Of a stretch of DNA of 58,116 nucleotides, positions 3,236 to 46,359 are shown one piece after another. The position numbers were made by a program, and so were the translations under genes. This stretch comes from an uncultured Candidatus Saccharibacteria bacterium (GTDB lineage: Bacteria > Patescibacteriota > Minisyncoccia > Phycocordibacterales > UBA5272): NCBI GenBank assembly GCA_964544935.1, contig CAZJDZ010000006.1:1-58116 (forward strand), given 5' to 3'. Numbering within the stretch: position 1 is the first letter of the stretch; each line of letters starts with the position of its first letter. The notes beneath the pieces are model-generated. The model was not told where the DNA came from, did not search any database, and worked only from the letters and a program-made list of their open reading frames with translations.

Positions 3236-3246
3236 CCCTTTAAAAT

Positions 3247-20472: not shown

Positions 20473-23400
20473 TTGGTTGCACTTCATGCTATAATCTTTT
20501 CAATTACATATTTTATGAAGTATATTGCTTTTGGTTTGAACGTAATCAAAGTATCTTTTTCAAAAGCGGTCTATTTTGCCTCTCGTTCTCTCAAGAAAAG
20601 AAAAGCACTCATGGTGAGTGCTTTTCTTATTTTCCTTCAATTAGCAACACCACTTACATCAGCTATCGTGTATGCAGCTGCAACTGCTTCTAATGATGTA
20701 GGTTCAAGTGCTGCACTTGATCCAGTAGGGAACAAAGCAACCCGTCTTCAGACGCAAGGCTCACAAGGAGTTGATCAATCAACAGGGGCACTTACCTACA
20801 GTTATCCTCTTACAATTCTTGCTGGAAGAAATGGAATGGCCCCATCACTAGCACTTTCATACAACTCTCAGAACAATGATACAGGATGGTTTGGGTACGG
20901 ATGGGTGATGAGTGTTCCATATATTGAAAGAACTACAAAATTTGGTACAGATAAACTCTATGCAACAAGCACATCGTTTGTATCGTCACTCCACGGAGAA
21001 CTTATTTCGACTAATGGTCTCAATTATGAACAAAAAATAGATGATGGTTCGTATGCAAACTACACGCTTACAGGCAGTAGTTGGCAAATGACTGACCGTG
21101 ATGGAACTACGTATTACTTTGGTAATTCGTACGTTAGTCGAGTTCAGAACGATGCAGGGACAAAGATTGGACGATGGTATTTGACGGAAGTCAGGGATAA
21201 GTTTGGTAACGGAATTGTTTATGACTATGTAAAAGATTCTGGAACCGTATATCCAAGCACTATTTCATATACAGAACATGCCCTTGCCCATCCCCTTAAC
21301 TTGGTTACTTTTAATCTTGAAAGTAAGAATGACAATCTTACAAGTTACAAATATGGTTTTAAGACTATTGATACCAAGCGAGTATCATATATAAAAGTAT
21401 CTACAAATGGCAGGGATAATGCATACTTTTCATTTACGTATGGTACAGGTGCAAATGGAGTACGTTCCCTTCTTCAGGGTGTTGAAGAAAAGCACTTGAG
21501 TACCAATGATGACTGGACGGTGTTACCAAAAACAACCTTTGAATACGAGAACTCATCAAGTACATTTTCTGGAACTATTTCAAATACTCAGAATCCATAT
21601 GGAACTGGAGCCAGTCTTAATACAGTTATTGATACTAATAACGATGGTATTTTGGACTTATATAATGCAGGAGATGGATTTTTCCCTGTTGATATAAATG
21701 GAGACTATAAGAAGGATTTAATGCAGAGTGATGTTTTTTATCTGTATGCATTTTCCGATGGAAGAAATATTATTTTTAAATATAACCAAGGGGGAAGTTT
21801 TTATACAAGAACTTTTAAATTGCCTGGAAGTACCGGAAGATATTCTCTTTCCTCCGGAGAAATAATACCCCCTGTTCGTTATAAAATGGATCCTTATATC
21901 CTGACTCCACAGCAAGAATCTGCTATTGCCGATGTGAATGGTGATGGGTTTGATGATGTTATTTATAACGATCCACTTGGACAATATGGGGTTGCAATAA
22001 ATACAACAAATAATACATTTGATTATAGTACTTCAAGTAGTCTTACTTTTTCTATTTCTAATAGTCAAGTAGCGGATGTTAATGGGGATGGGCTTCAAGA
22101 CTTGATCGTAAAGTGGTACACGTCAACCTCTACACTTTTTGGAGTTTTTCTTAATGATGGAATTAAATATCAACCTATAGCAGATTTTGTATATGATGCA
22201 AAAGTTGCCTCTACAACACCCGATTCTGGTGTTCGTTTTGTTGATATTAATAATGATGGATTAGTGGATATCATTAGGTCGTATACCTCATCATATTCAA
22301 AATTTTCTGGTCCAAGTTGCAGTCTTCCATATACATATATTCCTAGTGATAGTGGTCCAGCAGCTCAAACTGTTAATGATGCACTCTTTAACACTGGGTC
22401 GAGTTTTGTAGCTGCTTCTACCACACTTTCTGGGTATGTGCTTTCATACAGTAGTTGTAATGTTGGAGGTGCCCAAGGGTATATTGTAACTAATGCAACG
22501 AAGGAATATGACGTCAACGGTGATCTAACAACAGACTATGATGGAGCTACCAACAACACAAAGAAACAAGATGTTCTTAAAAAAGTGAATACCTCACTTG
22601 GTTCTACACTTGATGTTTCATACAGATGGACTACACAGTCAGGACTCAATCCGACACTCCCAGTTCCAATGTATATTGTGGCCACAACAACTGAGAAGCT
22701 TTCAGTATCTGATGCTAATCCTCATAGTGTTGGATACAACTTTTACAATGGTCAGATGTATTTTGATGCTACAAGTCCTCGAGATCATAAGTTTGCAGGC
22801 TTTGGTAAAGTCGAGGTGATAGATGGCAAAAATAAAACAACAACTTACTACCATCAAGGAAATGGTGATGATTACACGACTGGTGAAAAAGGGGATTCAT
22901 ATTACAACATTGGTCGTGCATACAGAACAGACACATTTGATCTTTCGAGTGGCTCTTCTACTCTAGTTAATAAAAATCTTTCACTCTATACAACATACAG
23001 CTATGCATCTTCTTCGTTTACATATCTTGATTCACAGATAGTAAATGCATATAACAGTGATGGATCATTCGTATCCTCAGGAAGTAAGAGTCTCTATGAT
23101 GAAACCAAGCGCCTCATCAAGACATCGTATAAGTATGGTGATATCGAACCATTTGTTTCTTTTGCATCCTCAACGATTACTGACAGAGAAACTGATCTCA
23201 TTACTACGCAGTATCAGTACTCAAACACTCGCCCCCAAAGACTTGTAAAAGAAGTAAGCACTGACTACGCAGGTATATCTATTGGCACAACTAACTATTA
23301 CTATGACGGTCTTCCTTTTGGGCTGGTTGATAAGGGTGCGCTCACCAGTACCACAAATACAGTCTATAATCCTAACGGAACAATTAATTCTACGAGTACC

Positions 23401-26400
23401 ACGCAAATATCGTATGATCCTACAGGAAATGCTATTCAAAGCATAGATGGATTAAACAATAAAACAAAAGTCACCTATGATAGCTCATACACGTTTCCAA
23501 TAACGAAAGTTGATGCACTTAATGGCACTACAACTCTCACATATGATCCATACACTCTTAATCTTCTTACTTCAAAAGGACCAGACGGTATCACGTCAGT
23601 AAAAGAAACAGATGGATTAGGGAAAGTAACACGTTCATATCTTATTAACACAGCAGGGGGCATCACAGATGAAGTAAGAACTAACTATGTCTATGGAAAT
23701 GGAATTACAGTGTATGGAAGACGATTAGGAAATCTTGGGACAAGCGCGCGAACACTTGAAGTGTATGATAGTTATGGAAGACTTATTCAGTCAAAAAAAG
23801 AAACACAGCCAGATACTTTTTCTACTCAAGATACTAAGTACGATGCAAATAGTAATGTCATATCAACTTCTCTCCCATATACAACAACAGGATATGGATT
23901 TACTACTGATACACCTTCAAATGGGAGTAGTATATACACCTATGATGGTCTTGGAAGAGTGATATCAAAATCTGTTTTTGGTACAACGCTCACATACCAG
24001 TATGGTGCGAGAAATTTGACGGTCTATGATAATGCTTCAACTCAGCACAAAAAGTTCTACGCTTATGACGCAAACAGTAATCTCTCTCAAGTAAGAGAAT
24101 ATAACGCAACCAGTACTTACACCACAAACTACAACTATACTCCTCAAAATAAACTCACTAGTATCACTGATGCAAACGGTAACACTCGTAACTTTGCATA
24201 TCTTTCAAATGGGCTTCTCATATATCAGGAAGATCCTCATCCAACAACTGATACCACGTTTACTACATACTCATACACATACAATGTACTAGGTAATCTC
24301 CTTTCCAAGGTTGGATCCCTCGGTACTACTACCTATGCCTATGATGCATTAAGTCGCCCGACAACACGAACACTTCTTGATAGTGTATCTGGCACAAGCA
24401 CTGTTACCTTTGCCTACAACGGATGTTCAAATAACTACCTTGCACCATGTACTGTTGCAAGAGATACAACATCTTCCACAACATTTACATATGACACTTC
24501 CGGTAAGGTAAGTAATGAAACTATGGTTATAGGTTCTAAGAGTTTTGCACGATCGTATACCTATGATATTTATGGTAATCCAGAAACTATTACCTATCCT
24601 GATAGTGGTAAGGTTACCTACACCTACACACTTGATGGCAAACAGTCGACACTTACGTATCTATCTCCAAACGGAACAACCAAAAATATTGTTACCGGCT
24701 CAACATACAATTCACTCAATTCACTCGCATCACTAACCTATGGAAATGGGGTTCAATTCTGTAATACTTACACCAGTACGTCAGCAGATGGGGTTATTAG
24801 TCCAAAACTTGCAAAATCAGTATACCTTTTTAACTCCACAGGATGTTCACCAGTAGTTAATCAGGTAGAACTTTATAAAGACGAATTCACTTATAAAGAT
24901 GCTCTTACTCCAAGTAGTATTCTTTCTACTTACAAAGATATAGTAGGAACTACACATACAAAGAGTGACACACTTACCTATGATAATCTCGTACGACTTA
25001 CACAAGTGTCCACTTCATATGATGGTGGAAGCGCCGTCGTAGATACTCTCGTGTATGATCCAATCGGAAATATTTTAAAAGAAAATGATGTTTTGTATCG
25101 CTATAGTCAAGATGGAACACAGAATGCTCATGCAGCTACTTCCATTGGAGGCTACCACATTACCTATGATGGACAAGGGAACAAGACTCAGGCAGGGGAC
25201 AATGTCTACACATGGAATGCGCTCAATCAGATGCTCACCGCATCAAGCTCAAATGGTCTTGAAACATATACCTATGACGAAAATGGTGAAAGGATTAAGA
25301 AAGTTGTAACTGCTACTACTGTTGTCTCACAGAGAGCAACTCCAGCCACAAGTTCCTCAACATCCCCAGCTTTCACTCAAGGAGATCTTCTAACACCATT
25401 TGCAACATCGAGTACATACATTGCGACGTCTACATACAACACACTCAGTTCACTTGCACTACTCGATAAAGGGACACTCACAACACTTGTCGATAAGTAC
25501 TACGGCTCACCTTTCATTAGTAAATTTTGTGCAACTGAAATCACATCACTTGATCGTCAAATTTGTACCGCATCAACAACACGACAACTAATTGGTAACG
25601 ATATTAATAACAGAAGTACAAGTACAATTGCAACATATGGTCTTGTTGTCGATCTAATCAAAATTGTAACAGGGGAGTACCTTATCCCTACTACCTATGT
25701 GGGACTTGCTACAAGTAGTATCGCAGTCAGTCTTACTGGTAACTTGAAAGTAAAAACCGCAACAATTACCTCATTCAACACCTTCGTGGCTACAGGTATT
25801 GTGGTCCCAATGAGTGAGTATGAAGACCTTCCATATGTTTCTAGTAGTACCTACTCATCACTTACTCAAGTTGGTTTAACAGATACAAGTAAAGTGCGAG
25901 CACTTCTTGTACTTACTGGGTGTACATCACTCACCACTTCTTGCGCTACAGCAAAGAAAGTAGTCTTTGAAAAGTTTTATAAAGAAAATGGTTACTTGTT
26001 AGCCGATAAAGCACTTGAAGAAATATGGTATGTCTTTGCAGTAAAGGCACGCCTCCCTTCTAACTCTGGAGAGTTTACTTCAACTTCAACTATACTTGGA
26101 AATATAACAGTGCCAAATATTACAGGAATAGGTACGAGCACAGCTACATCTACATATTATTCAGGACTCTATTTCACTACAGAATATACTAATCAGAATC
26201 TAAGTGAGCCACGACTTACCTACTTCAATATACTTCCATATTATGTAACTCAGTCAGCATTTACAGAGCTACAACAAGCAGGGATTACTCAGGTGACACT
26301 TGAAAATTATCAATCACTCATTACAGATTTATTCAGTGTCAAACTTGCATCGTCGACAGAGTATATGGTGGCGCTTAAGGATTTTGCTTTGTATGATAAA

Positions 26401-29400
26401 AAAGTAACCCTGTCCCAAAATGCCCTTAAGGAGCTCTATCTTGTATCTCTAGGTGCGGCAAGTATTCCAAATAATCTAACTGACTATATATCTAATGCAA
26501 CGTTTGATCTTACGGGCTACTTGAGTACAAATAGCTATCAATATAATCCTACATTGGGCACATGGTTCCTATATGGATCTTCGGTTTGTAACGCAGGAGC
26601 ATTTGAATATTATGGGTCAATTGCAGTTACTCGATGTATAGTAACTAATTCATCGTTTACGCTACCTGTAGCTACAAGTTCTACTGTCAGCTATATTTTA
26701 TCAACTACAATTCCTCCTCAACCAGTAGAAAATCCACTGATTGTTGGTAAATCTTCAAGAGGGACAGTGGAGTTACGACTTACATCTTCAAGTAGTCTTG
26801 CTTATCTTTATGATAATCAATATTCAACAACAATTGCAAATGATGGGAGTAAATTAGAAGTAGATATTACACCAGTAGTTGTTGCAAGACTTGCTGGATC
26901 AACAACCACAGCACTTATTGTTAACCCTAGTGAATATGGACCTTATGCATACTCTTGGCAAGCAACGTCTGTTACTCTAAAAGCATATGTTGCCACTCCT
27001 AAACTCACTCTTGCTTCTACAACACTTGTCTCAGGGGTAACGAATGCTACTTCATCTATCTTTACTCCAGCAATTGATAGTGCTATCTCTGCATACTTTG
27101 GTGAAATCTACGATAGTTCTAGTCTCGTAACCGTGAGCACTTCAACAGCTACAGTTATTTCACCAGAAGCATATGGAGAATTTGCTTCTACAACACTGAG
27201 AGATGTATATGACATCTCTCAGGTATTTCTAGCAACCAGTACCCCATGGTGTGAAGCGAATGCATCCACCACTGAGTGTGATAAACAGGCGCGTATATCA
27301 TTCTTTAGAAATGTCATCAGTAATCTTACAGGGTTTGTTCCTAGTCAAGCGGGTGTAGAAGAATTCTGGATGGTCCATAAAGGGATACTTACTCTACCTA
27401 ATATTAATTATGCTTCAACAACAGGCACCACCACAATCCCAGGATTCTTTGCTGCAAGCACTACATTAAATGCCTATCCAAATGCCTATGTGTACAGTGT
27501 TGATCCAGGGCACTATGACTATCAATATGTCGCAACTACAACTGCTAGTACAACAGTAACCATTCTTAATACGCAAGCAGGTGGTACGACATTTACAGCA
27601 GCTACAGGATCCCAGTACATCCTTTCCTTCTGTGGTTCGTATTGTAATACTCCAACATTCAATGGGGTGTCCATGACAAACTTGGTTACGAGGGCTAGTC
27701 CAAATACTAATTCAGATATAAGGGTCTTTGGTTTAGCAACAACAACATCACAGTCAGTTCCTGTAACAAGTAATTGTGGTACTAACTGTGGCAATGCAAC
27801 AGATCATTATAGATGGGTGTCTTTAAGTGGAGTTAGTACATCTTCATATTATTACGATACACAAAGTGCCGCGGGAAACAATGCTTCTTCCTTGTCAGTA
27901 ACTGAAAATCTTCAAGATAAAAATAATCTTACAATTATATCTTCCAACATCTCTACTGTAGGCACAAGTGGAGGAACAGGTTCTTCACCACTTGTAGCAA
28001 CCACATCAAGTAGACTTTGGTATCACTATGCAACTACTACAGGCAACTTCACCTATTCTATAACTGGACTAGGTAGTACAGATGCAGAAATCGCCAGTAT
28101 TCAAATTAATCATAACCCAAATGATACAGTAACTCCTGGATACTATACTGCAAACTATATTGCAACAACAACGCTTTATTATATAGCGACAACTAGCCAG
28201 CAATTGCCAGGTATCTTTACAACTGTACTTGCTACGTATCCGGTATTCTCTCGATCAAGTTTACCAACATCACTTTCAACATCTACTGTTACAAATATTT
28301 CTACAAGTACTGTACCTGGGCACTGGGCAACTGAATGGGATTCACTGGACTATATTGCCACCTCAACTGCAACTTCTACAGGTGGAACCATAACTAATCT
28401 TGGTTCTGTTTACTTCCATACATTTACCGCAACCGGAACATTTTCAACAAGTAACTATTTCCCTGCAAAAGTCCTTGTGCTAGGTGGAGGAGGTGCATCA
28501 AATGGAGGCCCTGGAGGAGGTGGAGGGCAGTATGTTTATAACGGAGCATTTGCAATGGCTTCTTCCTCGTATTCAGTCATAGTTGGTGCTGCTGGTGCTA
28601 CGTCTAGCTTTGACACACTCATTGCTCCTAAAGGAGGAGATGGTGTTGGAGGAACTTTTACTGGAGGTTCAAGTATGACATATACAGGAGGAACAGGAGG
28701 AAGTAATGGAATGGGTGGTGGAGCAGGGGCTGCAGCTAATGGCTCTAATGGATCAGGTAATTTTGGAGGTGGAGGAGGAAATGGTTTTATTAATCCAATT
28801 CCAGGATCTACTCATGGTCAATACTCAGGGGGTAATTATTATCTTGGAGGTGGAGGTGGCGGATATGGAAATACCGGACATGCATCTGGTGGACTTGGTG
28901 GAGGAGGATTAGGTAATTATGGTGGAGCTGCAACTGCAAATTTTGGAGGTGGAGGCGGGTCATATTCATCTGGTAGTTCTGGTGTAGTTATTGTTAGCTA
29001 CGATAGTGTTGTTACGCCTGGATTTTGGCTTACCGTACACCACTCTTCCACTACTCCTGTGTATATTGCAACAACTACGCTCACTCAAGTAGTAACGAAT
29101 CTTTCTCTGGTACCAGCAGGGCTATTGTCTGATCTCCAGTACAATGCTACGTACTCAACTTCTACATTTGCACAAGCGACAAGTACAAAAGCAGTGAGCG
29201 AAGATACCTACAACGAGCTTCTTCGTACTCCTATTCGCCTCAACTCTGATGTCGATACTATCTTTGATTACGCACTTCCATTTGCAACAAGTACCTGTCC
29301 CGGACAAGCAGCAACGAGTTCTTGCGTGGTAACTGCACAAAAATCAAAAGTAAAGGATGTAGTCAGTCAGTTCTCTGGCTTCGTACTCTCTGATGCTGCA

Positions 29401-31371
29401 GCAGAAGAACTTTACAGAGTTAAGACAGGTGAACTCTCGATTATCCCTATATCACTATCAACTGCCACTCTCTCTACTTCATCACAATCAGTTACAGTAC
29501 CTCTTGATCCTTCTGTAACATACACAACCTTTACGCAAGGAACATCTACTCCAACAAAAGGTGATTGTTCCTTCGGTACCCAAGGTGGAGTGACTGATAG
29601 TTGCTATATCGAGCTTCCATACATCAACTCTCCTATCTCATCACTCCAGATGACCTATCAAGCACTTCCAAAGACGCTTGGAACAAGTACCATGGCTACA
29701 ACTTTGGTTTCAAGCTATGCAACAACAACTGCAGGTACATCTACTCCTACAATTATTACAAGCACAACAACAGGACTGCTCAATGGTACAAAAGTAGGTA
29801 CTTCTACATTCTTCTTTGATCTCGGTAGTCTCTATCAGCTCTATATCAGTACTTTATCTCCTACACTACAGTTGTATCCAGACGGAGTAGGTACATCATC
29901 TAAGATCTATTCATTAGGCACTACAACACTTAACCTCACTCGTTCTATCCTCATCCCTCGTATTACCTATACACCAGCTACTATGCCAACAAGTGCATTT
30001 AGTAGGACTTCCATCCCATCCTTAGCTACAACAACTGCAACTACTACCGTTGATATGACATCCACCCCAGCACTTACCTTCTCTGCTACCTTCCTCTCTC
30101 CCGTAGGTCCTATAGCTTCCGGTACCACAATATATGCAGGATACATAGTAGACACTACTCCAATTAATCTCCCAGTTCCTCCACAGCAGTCTCTCCCTCC
30201 AGTAAGTTATCCATTCGCTACAAGTACTGCAACCACTACGGTAAACACACTTACTGTATCTACCACCACTTCATACACGGTATATTCTCCATTCACTAAC
30301 TACACTGACGATACTGCACGAGATATACGTACTACCTACTTCACTCTAAATGGAGTACTTGTAGGAGCATATACCTACAAGAAGAATAATGAATCAACTA
30401 CAGGTAAAGTAACCTATATACACTCTAACTATTTAGGTACTCCTGTAATAGAGACAGATGAGAAGGGGGATATTGTAGAGATGGATATTACGGACGTGTT
30501 TGGGAATTATGTACAAAGGGATCAAAGGAATGATAATGCGTATCATAATAAAGGGTATACAAGTCATGAGTATGATGATGTAACAGGACTTACGTATGCG
30601 CATGCAAGATACTTGGATACAAAGACACATAGTTTCTTGAGTGTTGATCCACTTAACTATAGTCTTCCGCAGAGTTATCTTCTTGACCCACAGCAGATGA
30701 ATAGCTATGCGTATGCGAGAAACAATCCAATTGTGTATACAGACCCGACAGGGCAATACACACAAAACTATGGTCCAGTAGGTGATCTTCCAAAATCACC
30801 GACATATCCACAGAACTATGGATATTCAGGTTTCAAAGGTCCACAAATATCATCTTACACTGGGATGAATCTAAGGAGTCAAACTACTATCACATTCAGA
30901 AAATCAGATGTGGATGATCTTGTTCTGTCTGGGTATGGGCAAGCAGCAAAAGATGATTGGCTGGCAGGGAATTATGGGTATGCGATTGGTCTTGGTTTCC
31001 TAGGTGGTACAGCCGCTATTTCGAGTGTAGTTAGTTCACCAGAGAGGGTGGGTGTAAACATAACAGCAAAGGTTTTAAGAGGGGCAAACAATCCAATAAC
31101 TAGAAGTACTGCCGCGTATGGTCGTGATGCACATAAGTTTTATAAGATAGGTATTGCAAATGGAGAAACTCTTGTTAAAGAATTTAATAAAATTCCTGGG
31201 ATAAGGCCTGATTTTGTTGACTTAGAAAATAAGATTATTTATGAATTAAAACCAGATAATTTGAGAGCTATAAAGCAAGGTGAAAAACAGCTCAATACGT
31301 ATATTAAAGCTTTCAAAGATGCTGGGTACGGTGATTTTAAGGGTGTTTTACAAACATATCAAAGAGAGTGA
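20473..31371 (+). CDS. Giant secreted TcB/TcC-like RHS (YD-repeat) polymorphic toxin, 3,632 aa (true start possibly the ATG at 20515)
   Basis: Signal-like KKRKALMVSAFLIFLQLATPLTSAIVYAAA. SpvB/TcdB N-terminal motif STGALTYSYPL...GRNGMAPSLALSYNS...GYGWVMSVPYIERTTKFG. FG-GAP/VCBS-like DxNxDGxxD repeats and dozens of YD repeats (YTYDGLGRV, YAYDANSNL, YTYDENGERIKK). RHS core end ARYLD...SVDP...NSYAYARNNPIVYTDPTGQ. Confidence 0.9.
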   Translation: MVALHAIIFSITYFMKYIAFGLNVIKVSFSKAVYFASRSLKKRKALMVSAFLIFLQLATPLTSAIVYAAATASNDVGSSAALDPVGNKATRLQTQGSQGVDQSTGALTYSYPLTILAGRNGMAPSLALSYNSQNNDTGWFGYGWVMSVPYIERTTKFGTDKLYATSTSFVSSLHGELISTNGLNYEQKIDDGSYANYTLTGSSWQMTDRDGTTYYFGNSYVSRVQNDAGTKIGRWYLTEVRDKFGNGIVYDYVKDSGTVYPSTISYTEHALAHPLNLVTFNLESKNDNLTSYKYGFKTIDTKRVSYIKVSTNGRDNAYFSFTYGTGANGVRSLLQGVEEKHLSTNDDWTVLPKTTFEYENSSSTFSGTISNTQNPYGTGASLNTVIDTNNDGILDLYNAGDGFFPVDINGDYKKDLMQSDVFYLYAFSDGRNIIFKYNQGGSFYTRTFKLPGSTGRYSLSSGEIIPPVRYKMDPYILTPQQESAIADVNGDGFDDVIYNDPLGQYGVAINTTNNTFDYSTSSSLTFSISNSQVADVNGDGLQDLIVKWYTSTSTLFGVFLNDGIKYQPIADFVYDAKVASTTPDSGVRFVDINNDGLVDIIRSYTSSYSKFSGPSCSLPYTYIPSDSGPAAQTVNDALFNTGSSFVAASTTLSGYVLSYSSCNVGGAQGYIVTNATKEYDVNGDLTTDYDGATNNTKKQDVLKKVNTSLGSTLDVSYRWTTQSGLNPTLPVPMYIVATTTEKLSVSDANPHSVGYNFYNGQMYFDATSPRDHKFAGFGKVEVIDGKNKTTTYYHQGNGDDYTTGEKGDSYYNIGRAYRTDTFDLSSGSSTLVNKNLSLYTTYSYASSSFTYLDSQIVNAYNSDGSFVSSGSKSLYDETKRLIKTSYKYGDIEPFVSFASSTITDRETDLITTQYQYSNTRPQRLVKEVSTDYAGISIGTTNYYYDGLPFGLVDKGALTSTTNTVYNPNGTINSTSTTQISYDPTGNAIQSIDGLNNKTKVTYDSSYTFPITKVDALNGTTTLTYDPYTLNLLTSKGPDGITSVKETDGLGKVTRSYLINTAGGITDEVRTNYVYGNGITVYGRRLGNLGTSARTLEVYDSYGRLIQSKKETQPDTFSTQDTKYDANSNVISTSLPYTTTGYGFTTDTPSNGSSIYTYDGLGRVISKSVFGTTLTYQYGARNLTVYDNASTQHKKFYAYDANSNLSQVREYNATSTYTTNYNYTPQNKLTSITDANGNTRNFAYLSNGLLIYQEDPHPTTDTTFTTYSYTYNVLGNLLSKVGSLGTTTYAYDALSRPTTRTLLDSVSGTSTVTFAYNGCSNNYLAPCTVARDTTSSTTFTYDTSGKVSNETMVIGSKSFARSYTYDIYGNPETITYPDSGKVTYTYTLDGKQSTLTYLSPNGTTKNIVTGSTYNSLNSLASLTYGNGVQFCNTYTSTSADGVISPKLAKSVYLFNSTGCSPVVNQVELYKDEFTYKDALTPSSILSTYKDIVGTTHTKSDTLTYDNLVRLTQVSTSYDGGSAVVDTLVYDPIGNILKENDVLYRYSQDGTQNAHAATSIGGYHITYDGQGNKTQAGDNVYTWNALNQMLTASSSNGLETYTYDENGERIKKVVTATTVVSQRATPATSSSTSPAFTQGDLLTPFATSSTYIATSTYNTLSSLALLDKGTLTTLVDKYYGSPFISKFCATEITSLDRQICTASTTRQLIGNDINNRSTSTIATYGLVVDLIKIVTGEYLIPTTYVGLATSSIAVSLTGNLKVKTATITSFNTFVATGIVVPMSEYEDLPYVSSSTYSSLTQVGLTDTSKVRALLVLTGCTSLTTSCATAKKVVFEKFYKENGYLLADKALEEIWYVFAVKARLPSNSGEFTSTSTILGNITVPNITGIGTSTATSTYYSGLYFTTEYTNQNLSEPRLTYFNILPYYVTQSAFTELQQAGITQVTLENYQSLITDLFSVKLASSTEYMVALKDFALYDKKVTLSQNALKELYLVSLGAASIPNNLTDYISNATFDLTGYLSTNSYQYNPTLGTWFLYGSSVCNAGAFEYYGSIAVTRCIVTNSSFTLPVATSSTVSYILSTTIPPQPVENPLIVGKSSRGTVELRLTSSSSLAYLYDNQYSTTIANDGSKLEVDITPVVVARLAGSTTTALIVNPSEYGPYAYSWQATSVTLKAYVATPKLTLASTTLVSGVTNATSSIFTPAIDSAISAYFGEIYDSSSLVTVSTSTATVISPEAYGEFASTTLRDVYDISQVFLATSTPWCEANASTTECDKQARISFFRNVISNLTGFVPSQAGVEEFWMVHKGILTLPNINYASTTGTTTIPGFFAASTTLNAYPNAYVYSVDPGHYDYQYVATTTASTTVTILNTQAGGTTFTAATGSQYILSFCGSYCNTPTFNGVSMTNLVTRASPNTNSDIRVFGLATTTSQSVPVTSNCGTNCGNATDHYRWVSLSGVSTSSYYYDTQSAAGNNASSLSVTENLQDKNNLTIISSNISTVGTSGGTGSSPLVATTSSRLWYHYATTTGNFTYSITGLGSTDAEIASIQINHNPNDTVTPGYYTANYIATTTLYYIATTSQQLPGIFTTVLATYPVFSRSSLPTSLSTSTVTNISTSTVPGHWATEWDSLDYIATSTATSTGGTITNLGSVYFHTFTATGTFSTSNYFPAKVLVLGGGGASNGGPGGGGGQYVYNGAFAMASSSYSVIVGAAGATSSFDTLIAPKGGDGVGGTFTGGSSMTYTGGTGGSNGMGGGAGAAANGSNGSGNFGGGGGNGFINPIPGSTHGQYSGGNYYLGGGGGGYGNTGHASGGLGGGGLGNYGGAATANFGGGGGSYSSGSSGVVIVSYDSVVTPGFWLTVHHSSTTPVYIATTTLTQVVTNLSLVPAGLLSDLQYNATYSTSTFAQATSTKAVSEDTYNELLRTPIRLNSDVDTIFDYALPFATSTCPGQAATSSCVVTAQKSKVKDVVSQFSGFVLSDAAAEELYRVKTGELSIIPISLSTATLSTSSQSVTVPLDPSVTYTTFTQGTSTPTKGDCSFGTQGGVTDSCYIELPYINSPISSLQMTYQALPKTLGTSTMATTLVSSYATTTAGTSTPTIITSTTTGLLNGTKVGTSTFFFDLGSLYQLYISTLSPTLQLYPDGVGTSSKIYSLGTTTLNLTRSILIPRITYTPATMPTSAFSRTSIPSLATTTATTTVDMTSTPALTFSATFLSPVGPIASGTTIYAGYIVDTTPINLPVPPQQSLPPVSYPFATSTATTTVNTLTVSTTTSYTVYSPFTNYTDDTARDIRTTYFTLNGVLVGAYTYKKNNESTTGKVTYIHSNYLGTPVIETDEKGDIVEMDITDVFGNYVQRDQRNDNAYHNKGYTSHEYDDVTGLTYAHARYLDTKTHSFLSVDPLNYSLPQSYLLDPQQMNSYAYARNNPIVYTDPTGQYTQNYGPVGDLPKSPTYPQNYGYSGFKGPQISSYTGMNLRSQTTITFRKSDVDDLVLSGYGQAAKDDWLAGNYGYAIGLGFLGGTAAISSVVSSPERVGVNITAKVLRGANNPITRSTAAYGRDAHKFYKIGIANGETLVKEFNKIPGIRPDFVDLENKIIYELKPDNLRAIKQGEKQLNTYIKAFKDAGYGDFKGVLQTYQRE
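20770..21480 (+). other. SpvB/TcdB-N-like domain segment of the giant protein
   Basis: QSTGALTYSYPLTILAGRNGMAPSLALSYNSQNNDTGWFGYGWVMSVPYIERTTKFGTDKLY. Confidence 0.75.
21630..22545 (+). other. FG-GAP/VCBS-like calcium-binding repeat segment
   Basis: Repeated DTNNDGILDL, DINGDYKKDL, ADVNGDGFDDVI, ADVNGDGLQDLIV, VDINNDGLVDII and YDVNGDLTTD. Confidence 0.7.
23200..25305 (+). other. RHS/YD-repeat shell segment
   Basis: Successive YD-type repeats from YQYSNTRPQRL to TYTYDENGERIKK. Confidence 0.85.
25310..30330 (+). other. Roughly 5-kb Ser/Thr-rich, repeat-bearing insertion between the last YD repeat and the RHS core
   Basis: There are no YD motifs here. It contains five copies of an approximately 85-aa module, four PG[YHF][YW]...Y[IV]ATT motifs and a Gly-rich block (28468-29005). 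Confidence 0.7.
30173..30482 (+). repeat. Direct repeat copy 1 (inside the RHS gene, pre-core segment)
   Basis: About 310 nt, highly similar to 32031-32339. The 3' two-thirds are nearly identical and the 5' third is more diverged. Confidence 0.85.
30331..30756 (+). other. RHS repeat-associated core
   Basis: TYIHSNYLGTPVIETDEKGDIV...GYTSHEYDDVTGLTYAHARYLDTKTHSFLSVDP...YAYARNNPIVYTDPTGQ. Confidence 0.85.
30757..31368 (+). other. C-terminal variable toxin module, PD-(D/E)xK nuclease-like
   Basis: It follows the DPTGQ boundary. The tail reads GIRPDFVDLENKIIYELKPDN...GEKQLNTYI, matching a D...E.K restriction-endonuclease-fold pattern. Confidence 0.55.
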
Positions 31372-31422: not shown

Positions 31423-31839
31423 ATGAAAATAACAAAGTTAAATAATTTTTTAGTGAATCTTGGTTTTACTAAAAAAGGCAATAATTACAAAAAAAAAATA
31501 AATGACATCAATTATATAATAAACTTACAAAAGAGTAATTACTCTCCAGAGTGGTATATTAATTGTAGTTTAGATTTTGATGAGGGCAAAAAGGGTAATA
31601 TTTGGATGCGTGTTGGTGATAAAAATAAAATTTTCGAAAAAGATCTTTTTGATTTAATGAATGAAAATAAAGTTGATTTCGTTGTTGAAAAAATTAATGA
31701 AAAGTTTATTATACCTTTCGTTAATATTGGTGATGATAAAAATAAAATAAGAGAGTATGTTTTAACAAAACCAGGTGTTATTGTTAATGAATGGGCTAAA
31801 GATTATTTAGATATAAAATCAGATAGTTTAGTTTTTTAA
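31423..31839 (+). CDS. Candidate cognate immunity protein (138 aa)
   Basis: Starts 51 nt after the toxin stop on the same strand and is strikingly AT-rich. The N-terminus FLVNLGFTKKGNNYKK...YIINLQKSNYS...YINCSL recalls DUF4304-type immunity proteins (from memory, unverified). Confidence 0.6.
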   Translation: MKITKLNNFLVNLGFTKKGNNYKKKINDINYIINLQKSNYSPEWYINCSLDFDEGKKGNIWMRVGDKNKIFEKDLFDLMNENKVDFVVEKINEKFIIPFVNIGDDKNKIREYVLTKPGVIVNEWAKDYLDIKSDSLVF

Positions 31840-32016: not shown

Positions 32017-32373
32017 GTGATTGGAGTCTCAGTCCCTCCACAACAATCCCTTCCTCCAATTAGTTACCCATTCGCTACAAGTACAGCAACAACTACAGTT
32101 AATACATTAACAGTATCTACTACTACTTCATATACCGTATATTCTCCATTCACTAACTACACTGACGATACTACACGAGATATACGTACTACCTACTTCA
32201 CCTTTAATGGAATGCTTGTAGGAGCATATACCTACAAGAAGAATAATGAATCAACCACAGGTAAAGTAACCTATATACACTCTAACTACCTAGGTACTCC
32301 TGTAATAGAGACAGATGAGAAGGGGGATATAGTGGAGACGATACAAAAGAAAACACCTCTTAGATATATCTAA
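32017..32373 (+). pseudogene. Orphan RHS pre-core fragment (truncated duplicate of giant-gene codons about 3235-3336)
   Basis: It encodes VPPQQSLPPISYPFATSTATTTVNTL...YIHSNYLGTPVIETDEKGDIVE. It then runs into terminator-encoded residues (TIQKKTPLRYI) with no core end or toxin. Confidence 0.75.
32031..32339 (+). repeat. Direct repeat copy 2 (orphan fragment)
   Basis: See copy 1. Aligned by eye base-for-base with 30173-30482. Confidence 0.85.
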
Positions 32374-32389
32374 GAGGTGTTTTCTTTTG
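32344..32389. terminator. Bidirectional terminator, 46-nt perfect palindrome
   Basis: Arm caaaagaaaacacctctta, loop gatatatc, arm taagaggtgttttcttttg. It sits between the orphan fragment (+) and the esterase gene (-). Confidence 0.8.
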
Positions 32390-32402: not shown

Positions 32403-33641
32403 TTATTTTTTACAATATTCTTCTTTTAGTTTTGCAAGTGTTATTGGTCCAAGGTTTCCTGTTGGGGAAACACCTTTACTTCTTTGATATGCCATAACAG
32501 CTCTTTGTGTTTGTGGTCCAAAGACACCGTTAGCTTGAGGAGTGAATAAACCTCTGTCTTTTAAGAATTGCTGAAGGATAGTTATATATTCTCGTTTTGA
32601 AGCTAATCTATCTCCTCGTTTGAGTGTTGTAAGCGCAGGAATAATACAACGAGGTGTGGTTGTTGCAGTATTTTCTTTTGTTGGGTCAGTAGTAGTGAGT
32701 TCTTTTTGATAATTTGTACAGTCTGCTGTTCTTGTTACCTTACAAGCAAATGATGTGTCGATAAAATTAGTCATGTGCTCAAATATTGTAAGTCCAGTCT
32801 CATGTACTTTCCATTTATATATACCGTCTCCTGCTAATCCATGACCTGATCCGGGAGCAGTAATTCTTTGATACGGAACATTTGCTGCAGATGCTTGGCT
32901 TACAAGACGGTCTGACATAAGATATGGAACGACAGTATCTGCTGTACCGTGAATGATGAGAGCATTTGCATCACCAGAAGAAAGGTATTGTTTTTTATTT
33001 GGGATACCTCCTGAGATCTCGATAATTCCAAGTGGGTTTTCACTCTTATTAAAAACATAATCTGCAAGGTATGCAAGATTGATTGTTGTATATGCCCCAG
33101 CTGATCCACCTTTAATAAACCAGTGAGTGTCGATTTTTCCCATAAATTCTTTTGCAACAAATTCTTTTGCTTTGATTGCATCTTCAAGCGCAGCAAGTGC
33201 AGCGTAGGTCTGATCACGCGGAGTTCCTTCTTCTAGAAATTCTGTAACGAACTCTTGAGCTTTTGTATCACTCAAGGATTCTATAATAGGCTTACTATCT
33301 GACTGAAGGAGTCTGTAATTGATAGCAAAAAGGGCGTACCCTGCTTTTGCAAAATTTGTTTTGTTTTCGATGCCGCTTGATTTGTCTCCTTGAACAAAAC
33401 CTCCTCCATGAATGTCTCCAACAGGAATAGGGAGTTTGTCTGATCCATTTTTACAATCTACAGGTAAATATGCATCAAGATAAAGAGGTATGGTTGATGT
33501 GCCATTTTTTGTGAGAACAAGCCCTGTCCCGTATTGTATATTTTCTACAATACGATAAGAACACTCATCTATTGCACTAGCAGATATATAAGGAAAACTA
33601 AGTGTCGCAGCTACAAGTAAAGTAATTTTTTTAATATTCAT
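32403..33641 (-). CDS. Secreted alpha/beta-hydrolase (esterase/lipase-type) fused to a C-terminal peptidoglycan-binding domain
   Basis: Signal peptide MNIKKITLLVAATLSFPYISASA. HGGGF oxyanion motif (DIHGGGFVQGD) and nucleophile elbow GGSAGA. PG_binding_1-like tail LQQFLKDRGLFTPQANGVFGPQTQRAVMAYQRSKGVSPTGNLGPITLAKL. Confidence 0.75.
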   Translation of the reverse strand: MNIKKITLLVAATLSFPYISASAIDECSYRIVENIQYGTGLVLTKNGTSTIPLYLDAYLPVDCKNGSDKLPIPVGDIHGGGFVQGDKSSGIENKTNFAKAGYALFAINYRLLQSDSKPIIESLSDTKAQEFVTEFLEEGTPRDQTYAALAALEDAIKAKEFVAKEFMGKIDTHWFIKGGSAGAYTTINLAYLADYVFNKSENPLGIIEISGGIPNKKQYLSSGDANALIIHGTADTVVPYLMSDRLVSQASAANVPYQRITAPGSGHGLAGDGIYKWKVHETGLTIFEHMTNFIDTSFACKVTRTADCTNYQKELTTTDPTKENTATTTPRCIIPALTTLKRGDRLASKREYITILQQFLKDRGLFTPQANGVFGPQTQRAVMAYQRSKGVSPTGNLGPITLAKLKEEYCKK

Positions 33642-36456: not shown

Positions 36457-36882
36457 ATGAAAGAATTTTTTGTAGGCCTTATGATTCCCCTTCTTTCGAT
36501 TGATGTAACAGCACAAGCCAGAAAGTGCCCACCAGAAGCAATTCTCGAAGCTCGCTGTCATCAGGTTCCAGAACAACAGATGCAACCGCTTCCAGAAAAA
36601 AAGAAACAAAAAAGGGTTGTTGCTGTCGGTGAGTTCATGCCTGGAGAAGGCTGTCTCGCAGGGTTCAGACGGCTCGGGTATACGGTCACCGTTGCTCAGT
36701 GTCAGAAAGCTGCCAAAGAAAGTTCACTCGGAGTGCTATGGGTCGAAGATCCCAAAAAACCTTCCCAACCAGATACACTTGTTGTTGACGTTCAGCCTGG
36801 AGAACCTTTTGTCGTTCTTGAGGCAAGAGGAGTCAAAGCAACCAAAATCAAGCTGTACAAGAGGCCGAAGAGCCCCTCGTAA
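36457..36882 (+). CDS. Small secreted Cys-containing protein (141 aa), visibly more GC-rich than its neighbours
   Basis: AGAGGA RBS at 36446 with the ATG at 36457. Signal-like MKEFFVGLMIPLLSIDVTAQA and four Cys. The longer listed ORF start (36358) would include the aspS terminator. Confidence 0.55.
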   Translation: MKEFFVGLMIPLLSIDVTAQARKCPPEAILEARCHQVPEQQMQPLPEKKKQKRVVAVGEFMPGEGCLAGFRRLGYTVTVAQCQKAAKESSLGVLWVEDPKKPSQPDTLVVDVQPGEPFVVLEARGVKATKIKLYKRPKSPS

Positions 36883-36889
36883 GTCAACC

Positions 36890-36928
36890 TTGCCGCTACA
36901 GAATACAACTGTGGCGGCAAACTTTTTA
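36890..36928 (+). terminator. Rho-independent terminator
   Basis: Stem ttgccgctacag / ctgtggcggcaa (one G-U pair) followed by actttttat. Confidence 0.55.
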
Positions 36929-36952
36929 TGGTATTATACATATATACTTACA

Positions 36953-38119
36953 ATGAAAAAATATGTAGCATTTATATTTTTAATATGTTTTTCTCTACAA
37001 ACTGCAACTGCAGTTACTGTGACGACTTTTGACAAAGCTATATGGATACCATATTGGAGAAAGACAGAAGGGGCAAGTACAACACTTCAGAATCTAAATA
37101 CACTCACACAGATCAGCCCTTTTGCTTTTGAGTTACAAAGTGACGGAAGTATCAAGAACGCACTGAGACTAGAAGCAGAACCATGGACAACACTCATAGC
37201 AGAGGCAAAGAAAAAAAATCAACCTGGACGGCCTGCGATGGGAATAAAAATATACCCAAGTATTCTGTCGTACCCTCAAAATGAAACTGCAAAGTATGAA
37301 TTCTGGCTTCTCATGGCTCAACGCGCGAGAAGAGCAGCTCATGTAAAAGAGATTGTTGCGCTTGTGAAGAAATATAATGTTGACGGTATTGATATTGACT
37401 ATGAGAATAAGAGTGCAGAGACACGACCTTACTTTTCTGCATTTTTGAAAGAACTTTCGCTTGCACTTCATAAAGAAAAGAAGCAGCTTATCTGTACTAT
37501 AGAGGCCCGTACACCTCCTGAGAGTAGATACGCTACGACTTCAAAAGAAATTCTCGCAAGAGTCGAATACTCAAATGACTACAAAGCGATCGGTACCGTG
37601 TGTGATCAAGTGCGTATCATGGCGTATGATCAAGCAGGAGATGACCGCAAGCTTGTTAACCAAAACGCAGCTCTTGGAAATACGTACAAACCTGTTGCAG
37701 ATATCGATTGGGTAGAAAAAATCGCAACAGTTGCACTCCGTGATATCCCTGCAAAAAAAATAATTCTCGGTATTCCAACATATGGGTATAAATATGAAAT
37801 CAAATCTCAACCGGGAACCTCTACAGTTACCTATAGTCGTATAGGTTCGATGAACTTTAATTATGCAGATGCGCTTGCAAAGAGTTTGAATATTACACCT
37901 ACCCGCAATTCAGCAGGCGAACTTAGTTTTACGTATTCTACATCAACAGATATAGAGGGTAACCCACTTGGAAGCACTAAGCAGTACCTTGTCTGGTACT
38001 CTGATGCTCAAGCTATTGCTGATAAAGTGCGAATCGCAAAATTATACAAGTTAGGTGGTGTTGTTATTTTCAAAATAGATGGAGGTAACGACCCAAAGGT
38101 TTGGCAAGTGCTTAAGTAA
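36953..38119 (+). CDS. Secreted glycoside hydrolase family 18 protein (chitinase / YaaH-like)
   Basis: Signal peptide MKKYVAFIFLICFSLQTATA and the catalytic DxxDxDxE motif (VDGIDIDYEN). The ATG at 36953 is preferred over the listed 36617 start. Confidence 0.8.
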   Translation: MKKYVAFIFLICFSLQTATAVTVTTFDKAIWIPYWRKTEGASTTLQNLNTLTQISPFAFELQSDGSIKNALRLEAEPWTTLIAEAKKKNQPGRPAMGIKIYPSILSYPQNETAKYEFWLLMAQRARRAAHVKEIVALVKKYNVDGIDIDYENKSAETRPYFSAFLKELSLALHKEKKQLICTIEARTPPESRYATTSKEILARVEYSNDYKAIGTVCDQVRIMAYDQAGDDRKLVNQNAALGNTYKPVADIDWVEKIATVALRDIPAKKIILGIPTYGYKYEIKSQPGTSTVTYSRIGSMNFNYADALAKSLNITPTRNSAGELSFTYSTSTDIEGNPLGSTKQYLVWYSDAQAIADKVRIAKLYKLGGVVIFKIDGGNDPKVWQVLK

Positions 38120-45072: not shown

Positions 45073-46359
45073 ATGTCATACCGCTCTTTTAGTTCATCAA
45101 TCATCATCAGCATTCTCTTGCTGAGCATCATGTCTACACCACATGTGTATTCTCAGACTGCAGATGAGCTTAAGAATAATCTTGATGCGCTTACTGCACA
45201 AATTAAGGCGCTGGACGAGGAAATAAAAGCATACAATACAAAAATTAGTGGTACCCAAGGTGAAGCAAAAACACTCAGGGCAGCACTTGCCCAACTAGAA
45301 GCTCGCCATGCGGGATTAACAAAGGATATCTCATATACACGTCTTCGTATTCTAAAAGCTGAAGATAATATCGCGTTTACAAAAAATAAAATAGATAGCA
45401 CAGAGTCGAAGCTTGACGAAACAAAGGCAGCACTAGCAGAGTCGCTCCGTTCACTTATTCACAATGAACAGTCAGTACCTTCTTTTGTTGGAGTGCTTGC
45501 TCCACATGCTCATTTCTCTGATATTATCGATATTGCCAAGAGAACAAAAGATGTAACGGTCGCTATCAATGAAAAAGCAAGAGCTCTTGCTGATGTAAAA
45601 ACAACTCTTGCAATTCAGAAGGCTTCCTATGAGGAGCACAAAAATACTCTGCTTAACCTTAATGAAACACTTAACGACCAGAAGGAGCTTGTTGATCAGA
45701 GTTCAAAAAGTAAAAGTACTCTGCTTGCACAAACCAAAAACAAAGAAGCTGAGTACCAAAAGTTAGTTGCTGACCGTAAGAAAAAGAAAGGTGCTCTTGA
45801 AGCGGAAATGCTTGACGTAGAATCAAAACTTAAAACAATTGTTGATGTAAGTAAGATTCCAAAGTATGGTAAAGGAGTACTTCAGTTTCCAGTTGATAAT
45901 GTGATTATTACACAGTATTTCGGGAATACACCTTTTGCTAGCCAAAACCCACAGGTATATAACGGGTCAGGTCATAATGGTATCGATTTAGGTATTAAGA
46001 TAGGTACACCTATCTACTCTGCTGCTCCTGGAGTTGTTTTGGGAACAGGGAATACAGACGCATCTTGCGCAGGTGTTTCTTACGGTAAATGGGTGCTCGT
46101 AAAGCATAATAACGGATTAAGCTCATTGTACGCTCACCTCTCTCTTGTTCAAGTCAAAGCAGGGGACGTGCTCACCGGCCGACAGAAAATCGCCCTTTCA
46201 GGAAATACCGGATACAGTACTGGCCCACATCTCCATTTCACCGTATACGCGTCTGATGCAGTGCAAATTACTAATTATGTGAGTAAGGTGTGTGGGACAA
46301 ATATGACAATGCCAATTGCACCACGTGCTGGGTATCTTAACCCTCTGAGTTATTTATAA
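45073..46359 (+). CDS. Secreted M23-family peptidoglycan endopeptidase with an N-terminal coiled coil (EnvC-like layout)
   Basis: Signal peptide, a long Q/K/E/L-rich coiled coil, then GHNGIDL (HxxxD) and GNTGYSTGPHLHF (HxH). Confidence 0.85.
   Translation: MSYRSFSSSIIISILLLSIMSTPHVYSQTADELKNNLDALTAQIKALDEEIKAYNTKISGTQGEAKTLRAALAQLEARHAGLTKDISYTRLRILKAEDNIAFTKNKIDSTESKLDETKAALAESLRSLIHNEQSVPSFVGVLAPHAHFSDIIDIAKRTKDVTVAINEKARALADVKTTLAIQKASYEEHKNTLLNLNETLNDQKELVDQSSKSKSTLLAQTKNKEAEYQKLVADRKKKKGALEAEMLDVESKLKTIVDVSKIPKYGKGVLQFPVDNVIITQYFGNTPFASQNPQVYNGSGHNGIDLGIKIGTPIYSAAPGVVLGTGNTDASCAGVSYGKWVLVKHNNGLSSLYAHLSLVQVKAGDVLTGRQKIALSGNTGYSTGPHLHFTVYASDAVQITNYVSKVCGTNMTMPIAPRAGYLNPLSYL

Follow-up and report, generated by a model that had tools for sequence, protein, structure and literature searches.

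A giant SpvB-propeller-RHS gene and its export

The window, by which we mean the whole 58,116-nucleotide (nt) contig analysed here (CAZJDZ010000006.1 of assembly GCA_964544935.1; GC content 38.9%), carries on its forward strand a giant gene that very probably encodes a polymorphic toxin of SpvB-propeller-RHS type, with a long additional segment, called the arm below, between its YD-repeat shell and its Rhs core. According to the list of open reading frames (ORFs) and the translation, positions 20473 to 31371 form one unbroken frame of 3632 codons that begins with TTG and has no internal stop. It is by far the largest ORF of the window, the next ones encoding 649, 626 and 620 residues. The ATG at 20515 (M15) is more likely to be the start than the TTG at 20473, because the close homologue L002 begins at the M15-equivalent position. 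Promoter-like matches were not enriched (30 found against 42 expected), and no promoter is therefore claimed. The main features outside the arm and the tail are:

20473..31371, + strand: giant gene for a predicted SpvB-propeller-RHS polymorphic toxin (ORF list and translation; likely start ATG 20515)
20515..20682, + strand: predicted signal peptide or signal anchor (long n-region, RSLKKRK, hydrophobic core at residues ~45-67, VYA-AA motif)
20593..20633, + strand: conserved stem-loop within the signal-peptide coding region (covariation across five homologues)
20770..21612, + strand: SpvB-like N-terminal domain, as at the N-terminus of TcB/YenB (Pfam SpvB; profile against solved structures)
21613..22392, + strand: FG-GAP/integrin-like beta-propeller, residues ~381-640 (Pfam FG-GAP families)
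22393..25317, + strand: YD-repeat shell, residues ~641-1615 (RHS_repeat, YD_repeat_2x, YD motifs)
30364..30756, + strand: Rhs-associated core, residues 3298-3428, with SVDP (D3392) and TDPTG (D3424) (TIGR03696)

The DnaK encoded in the window is up to 94% identical to that of metagenome-assembled genomes (MAGs) labelled Paceibacterota, Nomurabacteria, Parcubacteria or 'Saccharibacteria', and on this identity we place the host in the Patescibacteria, or candidate phyla radiation (CPR), as a Paceibacteria/Nomurabacteria-type lineage. This placement is consistent with the reduced genome that a preliminary description of the same DNA had guessed at. The giant gene would take up about 1% or more of a typical CPR genome, as estimated from typical genome sizes, which argues for its importance to the organism.

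Full-length relatives of the gene were retrieved by a pattern scan of genomes; a word-index protein search with arm residues 1620-2660 gave a single protein, P0001. Eight sequences were aligned, namely the window protein and those of loci L002 (3664 residues), L003 (3793), L006 (3637), L007 (3753), L008, L009 (2083) and L010 (1700). Full-length collinear homologues of 3637 to 3793 residues thus occur in four independent MAGs from different studies. The shell (residues 61-1615 in the alignment) and the core (residues 3298-3428) are common to all eight sequences, and a profile built from eight family members was compared with solved structures.

At the N-terminus, Pfam SpvB matched residues 103-190 (E = 1.9e-15), and the family profile matched YenB (4igl_A, 2e-15), TcdB1 (6l7i_F, 7e-14) and SpvB itself (6p0x). 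Two propeller families scored above their cut-offs, FG-GAP_3 at residues 487-546 (E = 5.5e-7, 30.5 bits, cut-off 26.9) and FG-GAP (E = 4.2e-5, 23.8 bits, cut-off 22.1), and D.N.DG motifs start at residues 387, 487, 535 and 591; the propeller region is missing from L010. The YD shell is conserved in all eight sequences. It was matched around residue 1270 by RHS_repeat (E = 2e-4) and YD_repeat_2x (E = 7.8e-8), families that reach 77-99 bits in the homologues P0004 and P0005, and it contains 13 YD motifs between residues 679 and 1601, none being found beyond residue ~1610. The Rhs-associated core was recognised by TIGR03696 (Rhs_assc_core) at residues 3341-3428 with 50 bits against a cut-off of 32.5 (E = 3.2e-13). 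Its residues D3392, P3393, D3424 and G3427 are invariant (8 of 8), and its profile matched Rhs proteins (~1e-28), Tse5, TccC2, YenC2, teneurin-like proteins and the mosquito protein SGS1 (1.8e-16). No match to TcdB_toxin_midN or midC was obtained with Pfam in the giant protein at E ≤ 0.1.

The preliminary description had proposed one uninterrupted ORF filling nearly a fifth of the window, a signal-peptide-like N-terminus, an SpvB/TcdB-N-like domain, FG-GAP/VCBS-like repeats and a canonical RHS core end followed by a variable tail, in sum a fused, Sec-signal toxin of BC type, that is, with the B and C subunits of toxin complexes (Tc) in one chain. The 10.9-kb frame, the family and structure-profile matches, the single N-terminal hydrophobic segment with its K/R-containing n-region and the differing tails of the homologues (both below) agree with each of these points. 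Its long YD-repeat shell has to be shortened, since YD repeats occupy residues ~641-1615 and the next ~1,700 residues have no YD motif. Among the profile families that it had named, SpvB, RHS_repeat and TIGR03696 were matched and TcdB_toxin_midN/midC were not detected.

The sole hydrophobic segment of the protein lies at residues ~45-70 (mean hydropathy above 1.6 over 19 residues), with RSLKKRK before it and VYAAA after it, and the alignment consensus shows that this signal-like region is conserved among the homologues; from these features we infer cleavage of the signal peptide. The protein contains 22 cysteines that form 11 close pairs (4-46 residues apart), none of them in the toxin tail, and 9 of the 11 pairs are kept in all four close homologues (L002, L003, L006 and L007). 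Such a pattern is that expected for a disulfide-bonded extracytoplasmic protein. Because of the lone N-terminal hydrophobic segment and the conserved cysteine pairs, Sec export of the giant protein appears well supported. Neither an LPxTG-like motif nor a Pfam match to LysM, SLH, CW_binding or PG_binding was found in the giant protein.

The signal-peptide coding region also contains a potential RNA element. At the boundary between n-region and h-region, five close family members share a stem-loop of 13 pairs, 5 of which show compensatory changes; its counterparts are at 10094-10122 in L002, 10013-10041 in L006, 3608-3634 in L007 and ~4543-4572 in L003. Its cells are paired in 92% of cases, compared with 41-55% after a shift of the partner strand by 1-3 columns, and 4 of 500 shuffles reached its covariation score. 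The complementarity owes something to lysine codons facing phenylalanine and leucine codons, and the central part covaries. The upstream genes differ among the loci, so the stem-loop is not the terminator of a neighbouring gene; attenuation, or a pause in the translation of a very costly secreted protein, could be its role.

The arm between shell and core

The alignment places the arm between the last YD repeat and the Rhs core, and its features in the window are:

25318..30363, + strand: arm of ~1,680 residues separating the last YD repeat (YTYDENGERIKK) from the Rhs core (alignment of homologues)
25408..25701, + strand: four-helix Cys-pair module copy 1, residues 1646-1743 (iterated profile search, E = 2e-27)
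25825..26070, + strand: four-helix Cys-pair module copy 2, residues 1785-1866 (copy-3/copy-4 profile, E = 2.5e-4, and 5e-24 after iteration)
27145..27411, + strand: four-helix Cys-pair module copy 3, residues 2225-2313 (reciprocal profile match with copy 4, E = 1e-12)
27493..29112, + strand: hypervariable arm block, residues ~2341-2880 (drop in alignment identity)
28462..29001, + strand: Gly_rich_2-like module, residues 2664-2843 (Pfam PF21722, borderline)
29182..29457, + strand: four-helix Cys-pair module copy 4, residues 2904-2995 (the copy modelled with AlphaFold2)

The arm (residues ~1616-3297) makes up ~46% of the protein. Its junctions are sharp, the order being YTYDENGERIKK, then the arm, then TYFTLNG and YIHSNYLGTPVIETDEKGDIVEMDITDVFGN; on this ground the arm is, as far as the alignment tells, an insertion where the last YD repeat connects to the Rhs core. 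In the eight-sequence alignment it is present and collinear in the four close homologues only. The distant relatives L009 and L010 have just ~80-90 residues at this site, and L008 has ~870 residues that are mostly unrelated. Besides lacking YD motifs, the arm is rich in serine and threonine (S/T; 26-43%). It is made of four-helix Cys-pair modules, of S/T-rich stretches with Y[IV]ATTT-type linkers that flank the modules, and of binding-type modules, namely Gly-rich ones of tail-fibre/ALK type and, in relatives, Laminin-G ones of lectin type.

A comparison of the protein with itself by BLASTP revealed no internal repeats; targeted hidden Markov models (HMMs) then brought out the copies of the four-helix module, including a weak fifth one at residues 1919-2005. 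The module is ~90 residues long and is characterised by a conserved cysteine pair and the motif G[FY]x[LP]SDxAxEE[LF][WY]xV…LP. When a profile built from the copies of the window and of P0001 was run against 1.84 billion representative proteins, just seven matches were obtained, and the confident ones (P0001-P0006) are all SpvB-RHS giants or fragments thereof. P0006, considered as a possible stand-alone arm protein, turned out to be a contig fragment of a P0005-like giant and was rejected as such; P0007, a protein with a type IX secretion tail, is probably spurious, since it matches the first ~30, S/T-rich profile positions only.

We modelled copy 4 with AlphaFold2 from an alignment of 22 sequences of the copies. 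The model consists of four helices and has a predicted local distance difference test score (pLDDT) of 94.6 and a predicted template modelling score (pTM) of 0.84, so that the module is, by prediction, a true folded domain. Its N- and C-terminal strands are adjacent, which suits a bead-on-a-string arrangement. Searched with the model, Foldseek returned nothing at E ≤ 0.001 from BFVD or from the PDB, where the best match had E = 0.9 and a TM score of 0.42.

The hypervariable block between copies 3 and 4 is 37-50% identical to the close homologues, with large gaps, whereas the flanking regions reach 57-77%. Its first half (window 27493-28390, residues ~2341-2640) contains two CxxxC pairs that are absent from the homologues. 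The Gly-rich module that follows shares the invariant non-glycine motifs HTFT..G.F, VLV.GGGG and SG.VIV.Y with the copies of L002, L006 and L007, and the Gly_rich_2 copies of the homologues score 65-123 bits. The numbers of the two binding-type modules found in each protein were:

Window: Gly_rich_2, 1 (weak); Laminin_G_3, none found
L002: Gly_rich_2, 2; Laminin_G_3, –
L007: Gly_rich_2, 2; Laminin_G_3, –
L006: Gly_rich_2, 1; Laminin_G_3, 1
L003: Gly_rich_2, –; Laminin_G_3, 3, at three different sites
P0003: Gly_rich_2, 1; Laminin_G_3, 1
P0004: Gly_rich_2, –; Laminin_G_3, 1

Judged from these family matches, binding-type modules have been gained, lost and duplicated among close relatives.

The toxin tail, its candidate immunity gene and a displaced 3' end

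Beyond the core lie the following features:

30757..31098, + strand: pre-toxin linker, residues 3429-3542, with the glycine-zipper-like stretch GYAIGLGFLGGTAAISSVV (read from the sequence)
31099..31359, + strand: predicted Tox-REase-9 nuclease tail, residues 3543-3629 (PF15650)
31423..31839, + strand: candidate immunity gene, DUF4304, 138 residues (PF14137, E = 8.5e-10)
32017..32373, + strand: orphan Rhs fragment (nt 32027-32338 are a copy of nt 30170-30481 of the gene, residues 3233-3337)
32344..32389, no strand assigned: strong terminator-like hairpin with a 20-bp stem at the cut end of the orphan, shared with the convergent gene

The tail is a predicted Tox-REase-9 nuclease. PF15650 matched it with 71.6 bits against a cut-off of 27.3 (E = 6.6e-20) over profile positions 2-88 (87 of 88). 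The signature given for this family by Zhang et al. 2012 comprises GxxxH, E, D, ELKP and YxxE (PMC3482391), and the window tail has GRDAH at 3550, PD at 3579 and ELKP at 3591. Tails are 10-21% identical among homologues, compared with 59-77% for the core, and they belong to Tox-REase-7 in L003, EndoU in L010, LHH in P0004 and a phospholipase-like type in P0005. Each homologue has its own unique small ORF directly downstream. The pre-toxin linker has no family match and is unrelated among homologues. Within it, the stretch GNYGYAIGLGFLGGTAAISSVVSS (window 30955-31047, residues ~3495-3525) is mildly hydrophobic and glycine-zipper-like, and the unrelated tail of L002 also holds Gly/Ala-rich stretches; that such a linker aids passage of the toxin across the target membrane is speculation.

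The DUF4304 ORF begins 52 nt after the toxin stop on the same strand, with no terminator-like site between them, and it is poor in GC (22.5%, compared with 38.9% in the window as a whole). Database searches gave four relatives of the tail, all on short metagenomic contigs, and in every such contig that is long enough a Tox-REase-9 gene is followed by DUF4304 within 10-75 nt. Five independent pairs were counted in this way, on L091, L092, L094 (two) and L095 (with three tandem DUF4304 genes). Because DUF4304 recurrently follows Tox-REase-9 genes elsewhere, it is very probably the cognate immunity family of Tox-REase-9. Zhang et al. name Imm54 as the Tox-REase-9 immunity family, with the signature 'GF, Q' (PMC3482391). 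The window ORF has LGF...Q, so DUF4304 may equal Imm54; DUF4304 is unmentioned in the literature searched, which included one supplement of Zhang et al. 2012. The short stand-alone Tox-REase-9 and DUF4304 loci (L091 2850-3827; L092 715-1692; L094 35-635 and 1133-2782; L095 9-2058) resemble a toxin/immunity cassette family, and L095 is like a poly-immunity array.

Downstream of the DUF4304 ORF, 312 nt of the orphan fragment repeat the stretch in which the arm gives way to the core (89.7% nt identity). The two copies differ at 32 nt, 25 of these being third codon positions, and in 5 of 103 encoded residues; transitions predominate (C>T 8, T>C 7, G>A 6), and the changes are not specific to adenine. 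This pattern marks the orphan as what is left of a diverged allele that was under coding constraint, and not as a recent duplication. The orphan documents an earlier exchange of the 3' end of the gene, a footprint of the classical Rhs 3'-end displacement (cf. PMC3967940). The break comes immediately ahead of the core (…EKGDIVE), where P0001 also stops (…DDKGGIV). At the locus of P0001, L001 (4067-13607 of GCA_965192815.1), the counterpart of the giant gene is broken up into two overlapping ORFs of 1863 and 1329 residues. It stops just before the Rhs core, has no toxin and shares its breakpoint with the orphan of the window; either this copy has decayed or been disarmed, or the assembly is wrong there. 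Where the Gly-rich module would be, L001 has two copies of a module without family assignment, with the pattern …DTNGY.YQ…HYWSR….

Proposed role of the arm, alternatives and known systems

Rhs and Tc cocoons are understood as containers that rely on TcA, on a type VI (T6SS) or type VII (T7SS) secretion system or on a wall anchor to reach their target. Among the 30 larger neighbours that were scanned in the 58-kb window, there was no match to TcA, VgrG, PAAR, T7SS or two-partner-secretion families, which bears out what the preliminary description had said of TcA, T6SS, T7SS and two-partner secretion. Scanning the neighbour genes of the homologous loci gave no TcA family either, and comparing the neighbourhoods gave no conserved accessory gene accompanying the homologues. 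The absence of TcA is not anomalous, because the combination 'signal peptide + SpvB + propeller + RHS' (TcdB/TcaC) is a named polymorphic-toxin class (Zhang et al. 2012, PMC3482391) and Gram-positive bacteria are known to have Sec-dependent Rhs/WapA giants of more than 3100 residues (PMC12704120).

We consider it fairly probable that the window protein is, as a whole, a Sec-exported, TcA-independent BC-cocoon polymorphic toxin with an external targeting arm. Taken separately, its identity as a polymorphic toxin is highly probable from the domain matches, and the external targeting role of the arm, which is argued by analogy, has a somewhat better than even chance of being correct. After export, the shell would fold round the ~200-residue C-terminal tail, the aspartyl protease of the core would free this tail near DPTG/Q (residue ~3427), and the nuclease would stay enclosed until delivery and then cleave the DNA of the target cell, all as in Tc BC and Rhs cocoons. 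DUF4304 would shield the producer and its kin. The arm would project outside the cocoon as a device for target recognition and adhesion, and the protein would thereby have two independently diversifying ends, one setting the cell that is bound and the other the way of killing. Rival Patescibacteria or the host bacterium of an episymbiont may be the targets.

We read the arm as an external recogniser because of its size, the ligand-binding type of its domains, the variability of its modules and the analogy with SGS1 and teneurins. Given the volumes of such cocoons, 1,680 residues are too many to be cargo of the shell. In SGS1, carbohydrate-binding, lectin and wedge domains inserted in the Rhs/YD repeat sequence decorate the exterior of the shell (PMC9935623), and phage tail fibres bind their receptors with tips formed by glycine-rich domains (PMC9608196).

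Several observations weigh against this interpretation. The arguments for an external arm are those of size, domain type and SGS1/teneurin analogy, and a single-sequence AlphaFold2 model of residues 1601-2350 was uninformative (pLDDT 30.6). The Gly-rich module of the window scored just under the gathering score of PF21722 (22.5 bits against 24.3, E = 1.3e-4), and neither an L006/L007 profile nor BLASTP recovered it after composition correction. No Laminin-G module was recognisable in the window copy when residues 2341-2640 were searched specifically, a stretch without family match. As for immunity, the DUF4304 ORF aligns to the N-terminal half of its family only, and searches of the genome and protein collections detected no relative of this ORF itself. 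Lastly, 58 kb of the genome were seen, and a partner encoded elsewhere is possible.

An arm facing the producer, that is, a stalk or anchor in its own wall or S-layer that holds the cocoon at the surface while Gly-rich and Laminin-G (LamG) modules bind self-glycans, seems unlikely to us. Surface display of WapA-type Rhs toxins does depend on a region that binds the wall (PMC12704120), wall-spanning regions typically contain S/T-rich linkers, and PG_binding_1 proteins are encoded beside the gene in four loci; moreover, with no LPxTG or other recognisable anchor, some part must retain the protein if it acts by contact. Conservation would be expected of such an anchor, yet the binding-type modules are the most variable part among close relatives, and the LysM, SLH, PG_binding and CW_binding domains were not detected in the arm. 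In Tc toxins the toxin leaves through the propeller end, and by sequence order the arm is inserted at the opposite, core end. This is one reason why we hold it improbable that the arm takes the role of TcA as a translocation device, with a long or hollow conduit that is rich in beta structure and set with helical modules. LamG and Gly-rich modules moreover serve for binding and are not parts of a conduit, no sequence link to channel-forming families was found, and the sole model of the arm region, at the pLDDT given above, is uninformative. The idea draws on the lack of a TcA gene in the window or beside any homologue, on the alternation of helical modules with S/T-rich stretches, with some beta structure in that unreliable model, and on predictions for other giant bacterial proteins, in which beta-rich tubules of ~1500 residues bear exterior helices at regular spacing and have been likened to RHS (bioRxiv 10.1101/2023.11.21.568195).

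To two further alternatives we give very little credit. The ORF might be an assembly chimera or a decaying pseudogene whose middle 5 kb are foreign to a functional Rhs protein: the first arm homologue to be found, P0001 (L001), came from a gene split in two ORFs and truncated before the core, and the GC skew changes sign inside the gene. Set against this are a frame open for 10.9 kb and the same order of segments in the unbroken ORFs of four MAGs from different projects, which makes misassembly very unlikely, and also in P0004 and P0005. In addition, the arm is 51-64% identical in its flanks and its cysteine pairs are kept, which indicates purifying selection. CPR genomes are rich in diversity-generating retroelements (DGRs), and with a near-identical repeat pair 1.5 kb apart, the 312-nt repeat and the variable block could be taken for the products of such an element (a template repeat/variable repeat pair). 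This origin of the repeat pair is effectively refuted by the mismatch spectrum, which is not adenine-specific and lies mainly at third codon positions; no reverse-transcriptase domain was found among the scanned window ORFs, and the repeat is located at the arm/core boundary, outside the variable block. Of the two, the retroelement is the less credible.

A more ambitious version of the targeting-arm interpretation can be put forward only tentatively, as it is probably not correct in full. The protein would be a single-chain, TcA-independent Tc-like weapon of an ultra-small episymbiont, in which the arm does the jobs of the A subunit (recognition of the target, positioning or opening of the cocoon) and exchanges its binding modules independently of the toxin tip ('doubly polymorphic'). 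It might be used against the host bacterium, for instance to release DNA and nucleotides for scavenging, and not only against kin.

The known systems resemble the window protein in different ways. It has all the architectural elements of the TcdB/TcaC class, a polymorphic nuclease tail, an adjacent candidate immunity gene and a displaced 3' fragment; unlike it, the class is not listed for Patescibacteria in PMC3482391 and has no member there with a ~1,700-residue insertion between YD repeats and core, and Zhang et al. give Imm54 for Tox-REase-9 where the window has DUF4304. With the Tc BC subunits (YenB/YenC2, 4igl; TcdB1/TccC2, 6l7i; TcdB2-TccC3) it shares the SpvB-like N-terminus, the propeller, the YD cocoon and the Rhs core with its aspartyl-protease motif. 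It differs from them in that B and C are fused in one chain without midN/midC matches, in the giant arm, in the lack of TcA in the window or beside homologues, and in its cargo, a predicted antibacterial-type nuclease with a candidate immunity gene instead of an insecticidal ADP-ribosyltransferase. WapA-type toxins (B. subtilis; S. suis, >3100 residues) likewise have a signal peptide, an Rhs shell, a polymorphic tail with immunity, an envelope that lacks an outer membrane, and great size (PMC12704120). The extra mass of WapA is an N-terminal wall-binding region (LysM and similar) that works with sortase, whereas the window protein begins with SpvB and propeller, carries its extra mass near the core and has no LysM or LPxTG that we could find.

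SGS1 (8fjp, 3364 residues) and teneurins are giant single-chain cocoons too, with exterior carbohydrate-binding, lectin and propeller domains as insertions in the YD sequence (PMC9935623), and the core of the window protein is detectably homologous to SGS1 (E = 1.8e-16). These proteins are eukaryotic and have several small insertions spread along the shell; the window protein has one contiguous multi-module insertion of 1,680 residues, with other domain types and a content that varies among close relatives. A functional comparison, and only that, can be made with CdiA, which has a variable receptor-binding region and a separately variable toxin tip, and with phage tail fibres, which have glycine-rich or lectin-type receptor-binding modules (PMC9608196); CdiA and two-partner-secretion proteins have no sequence or architectural homology with the window protein.

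The class of the toxin, the family of its tail and the footprint of displacement were known before. New are the multi-module insertion of 1,680 residues at a single site, the private four-helix domain, the swapping of modules and the Patescibacteria setting, together with, to judge from the literature searched, the Tox-REase-9/DUF4304 pairing; that literature holds no description of this arm-bearing toxin. The partners and attack mechanisms of CPR bacteria are largely unknown. Here, a small family of Patescibacteria proteins has a container that itself carries an appendage of 1,700 residues, made of swappable lectin-like and tail-fibre-like modules and an undescribed four-helix domain. If the arm is a targeting device, it would offer a tractable example of how TcA-less, Sec-exported BC-type toxins find their targets, a second axis of polymorphism in Rhs toxins (choice of target besides toxin activity) and a candidate mediator of cell-cell interactions in CPR bacteria. 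Practical by-products are the toxin-immunity pairing of Tox-REase-9 with DUF4304 and a new, confidently folding domain of ~90 residues.

Surroundings of the giant gene

By family scans, the remaining genes of the window have housekeeping and cell-envelope functions. They encode DnaK and DnaJ, aminoacyl-tRNA synthetases (Tyr, Ala, class II D/K/N type, class I E/Q type and class II G/H/P/S/T type), methionyl-tRNA formyltransferase, RpoA and ScpA, and, for the envelope, Glycos_transf_4 (MraY family), FtsW/RodA, MurG, MreB, a carboxypeptidase of penicillin-binding-protein type, an M23 peptidase, a GH18 protein and an RseP-like protease. The largest unannotated protein of the window is encoded by a 620-codon ORF (52521-54383, + strand) with no Pfam match at E ≤ 0.001.

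The genomic contexts of the homologues are all different. In at least two homologous loci a large serine recombinase of 441 residues (Resolvase + Recombinase + Zn_ribbon_recom) is encoded just upstream of the giant gene (L002 7397-8725, - strand; L003 2971-4299, - strand; probably also L004 2715-4043, - strand), which makes an integrative element a possible vehicle of the giant gene; the window itself showed no recombinase. Genes with a PG_binding_1 domain flank the giant gene in 4 of 5 close loci (window 32403-33641, - strand; L002 8953-9912; L003 16808-17632; L006 21240-21743). Their architectures vary, being esterase/S9-like in the window, with Big_3 in L003 and with DUF3761 in L006, and coincidence and common island cargo are both possible explanations.

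Two proteins encoded amid the cell-division and wall genes of the window, a GH18 (chitinase-like) protein of 500 residues (36617-38119, + strand) and an M23 peptidase of 428 residues (45073-46359, + strand), are possible envelope-degrading enzymes and as such would be of interest for an episymbiotic lifestyle.

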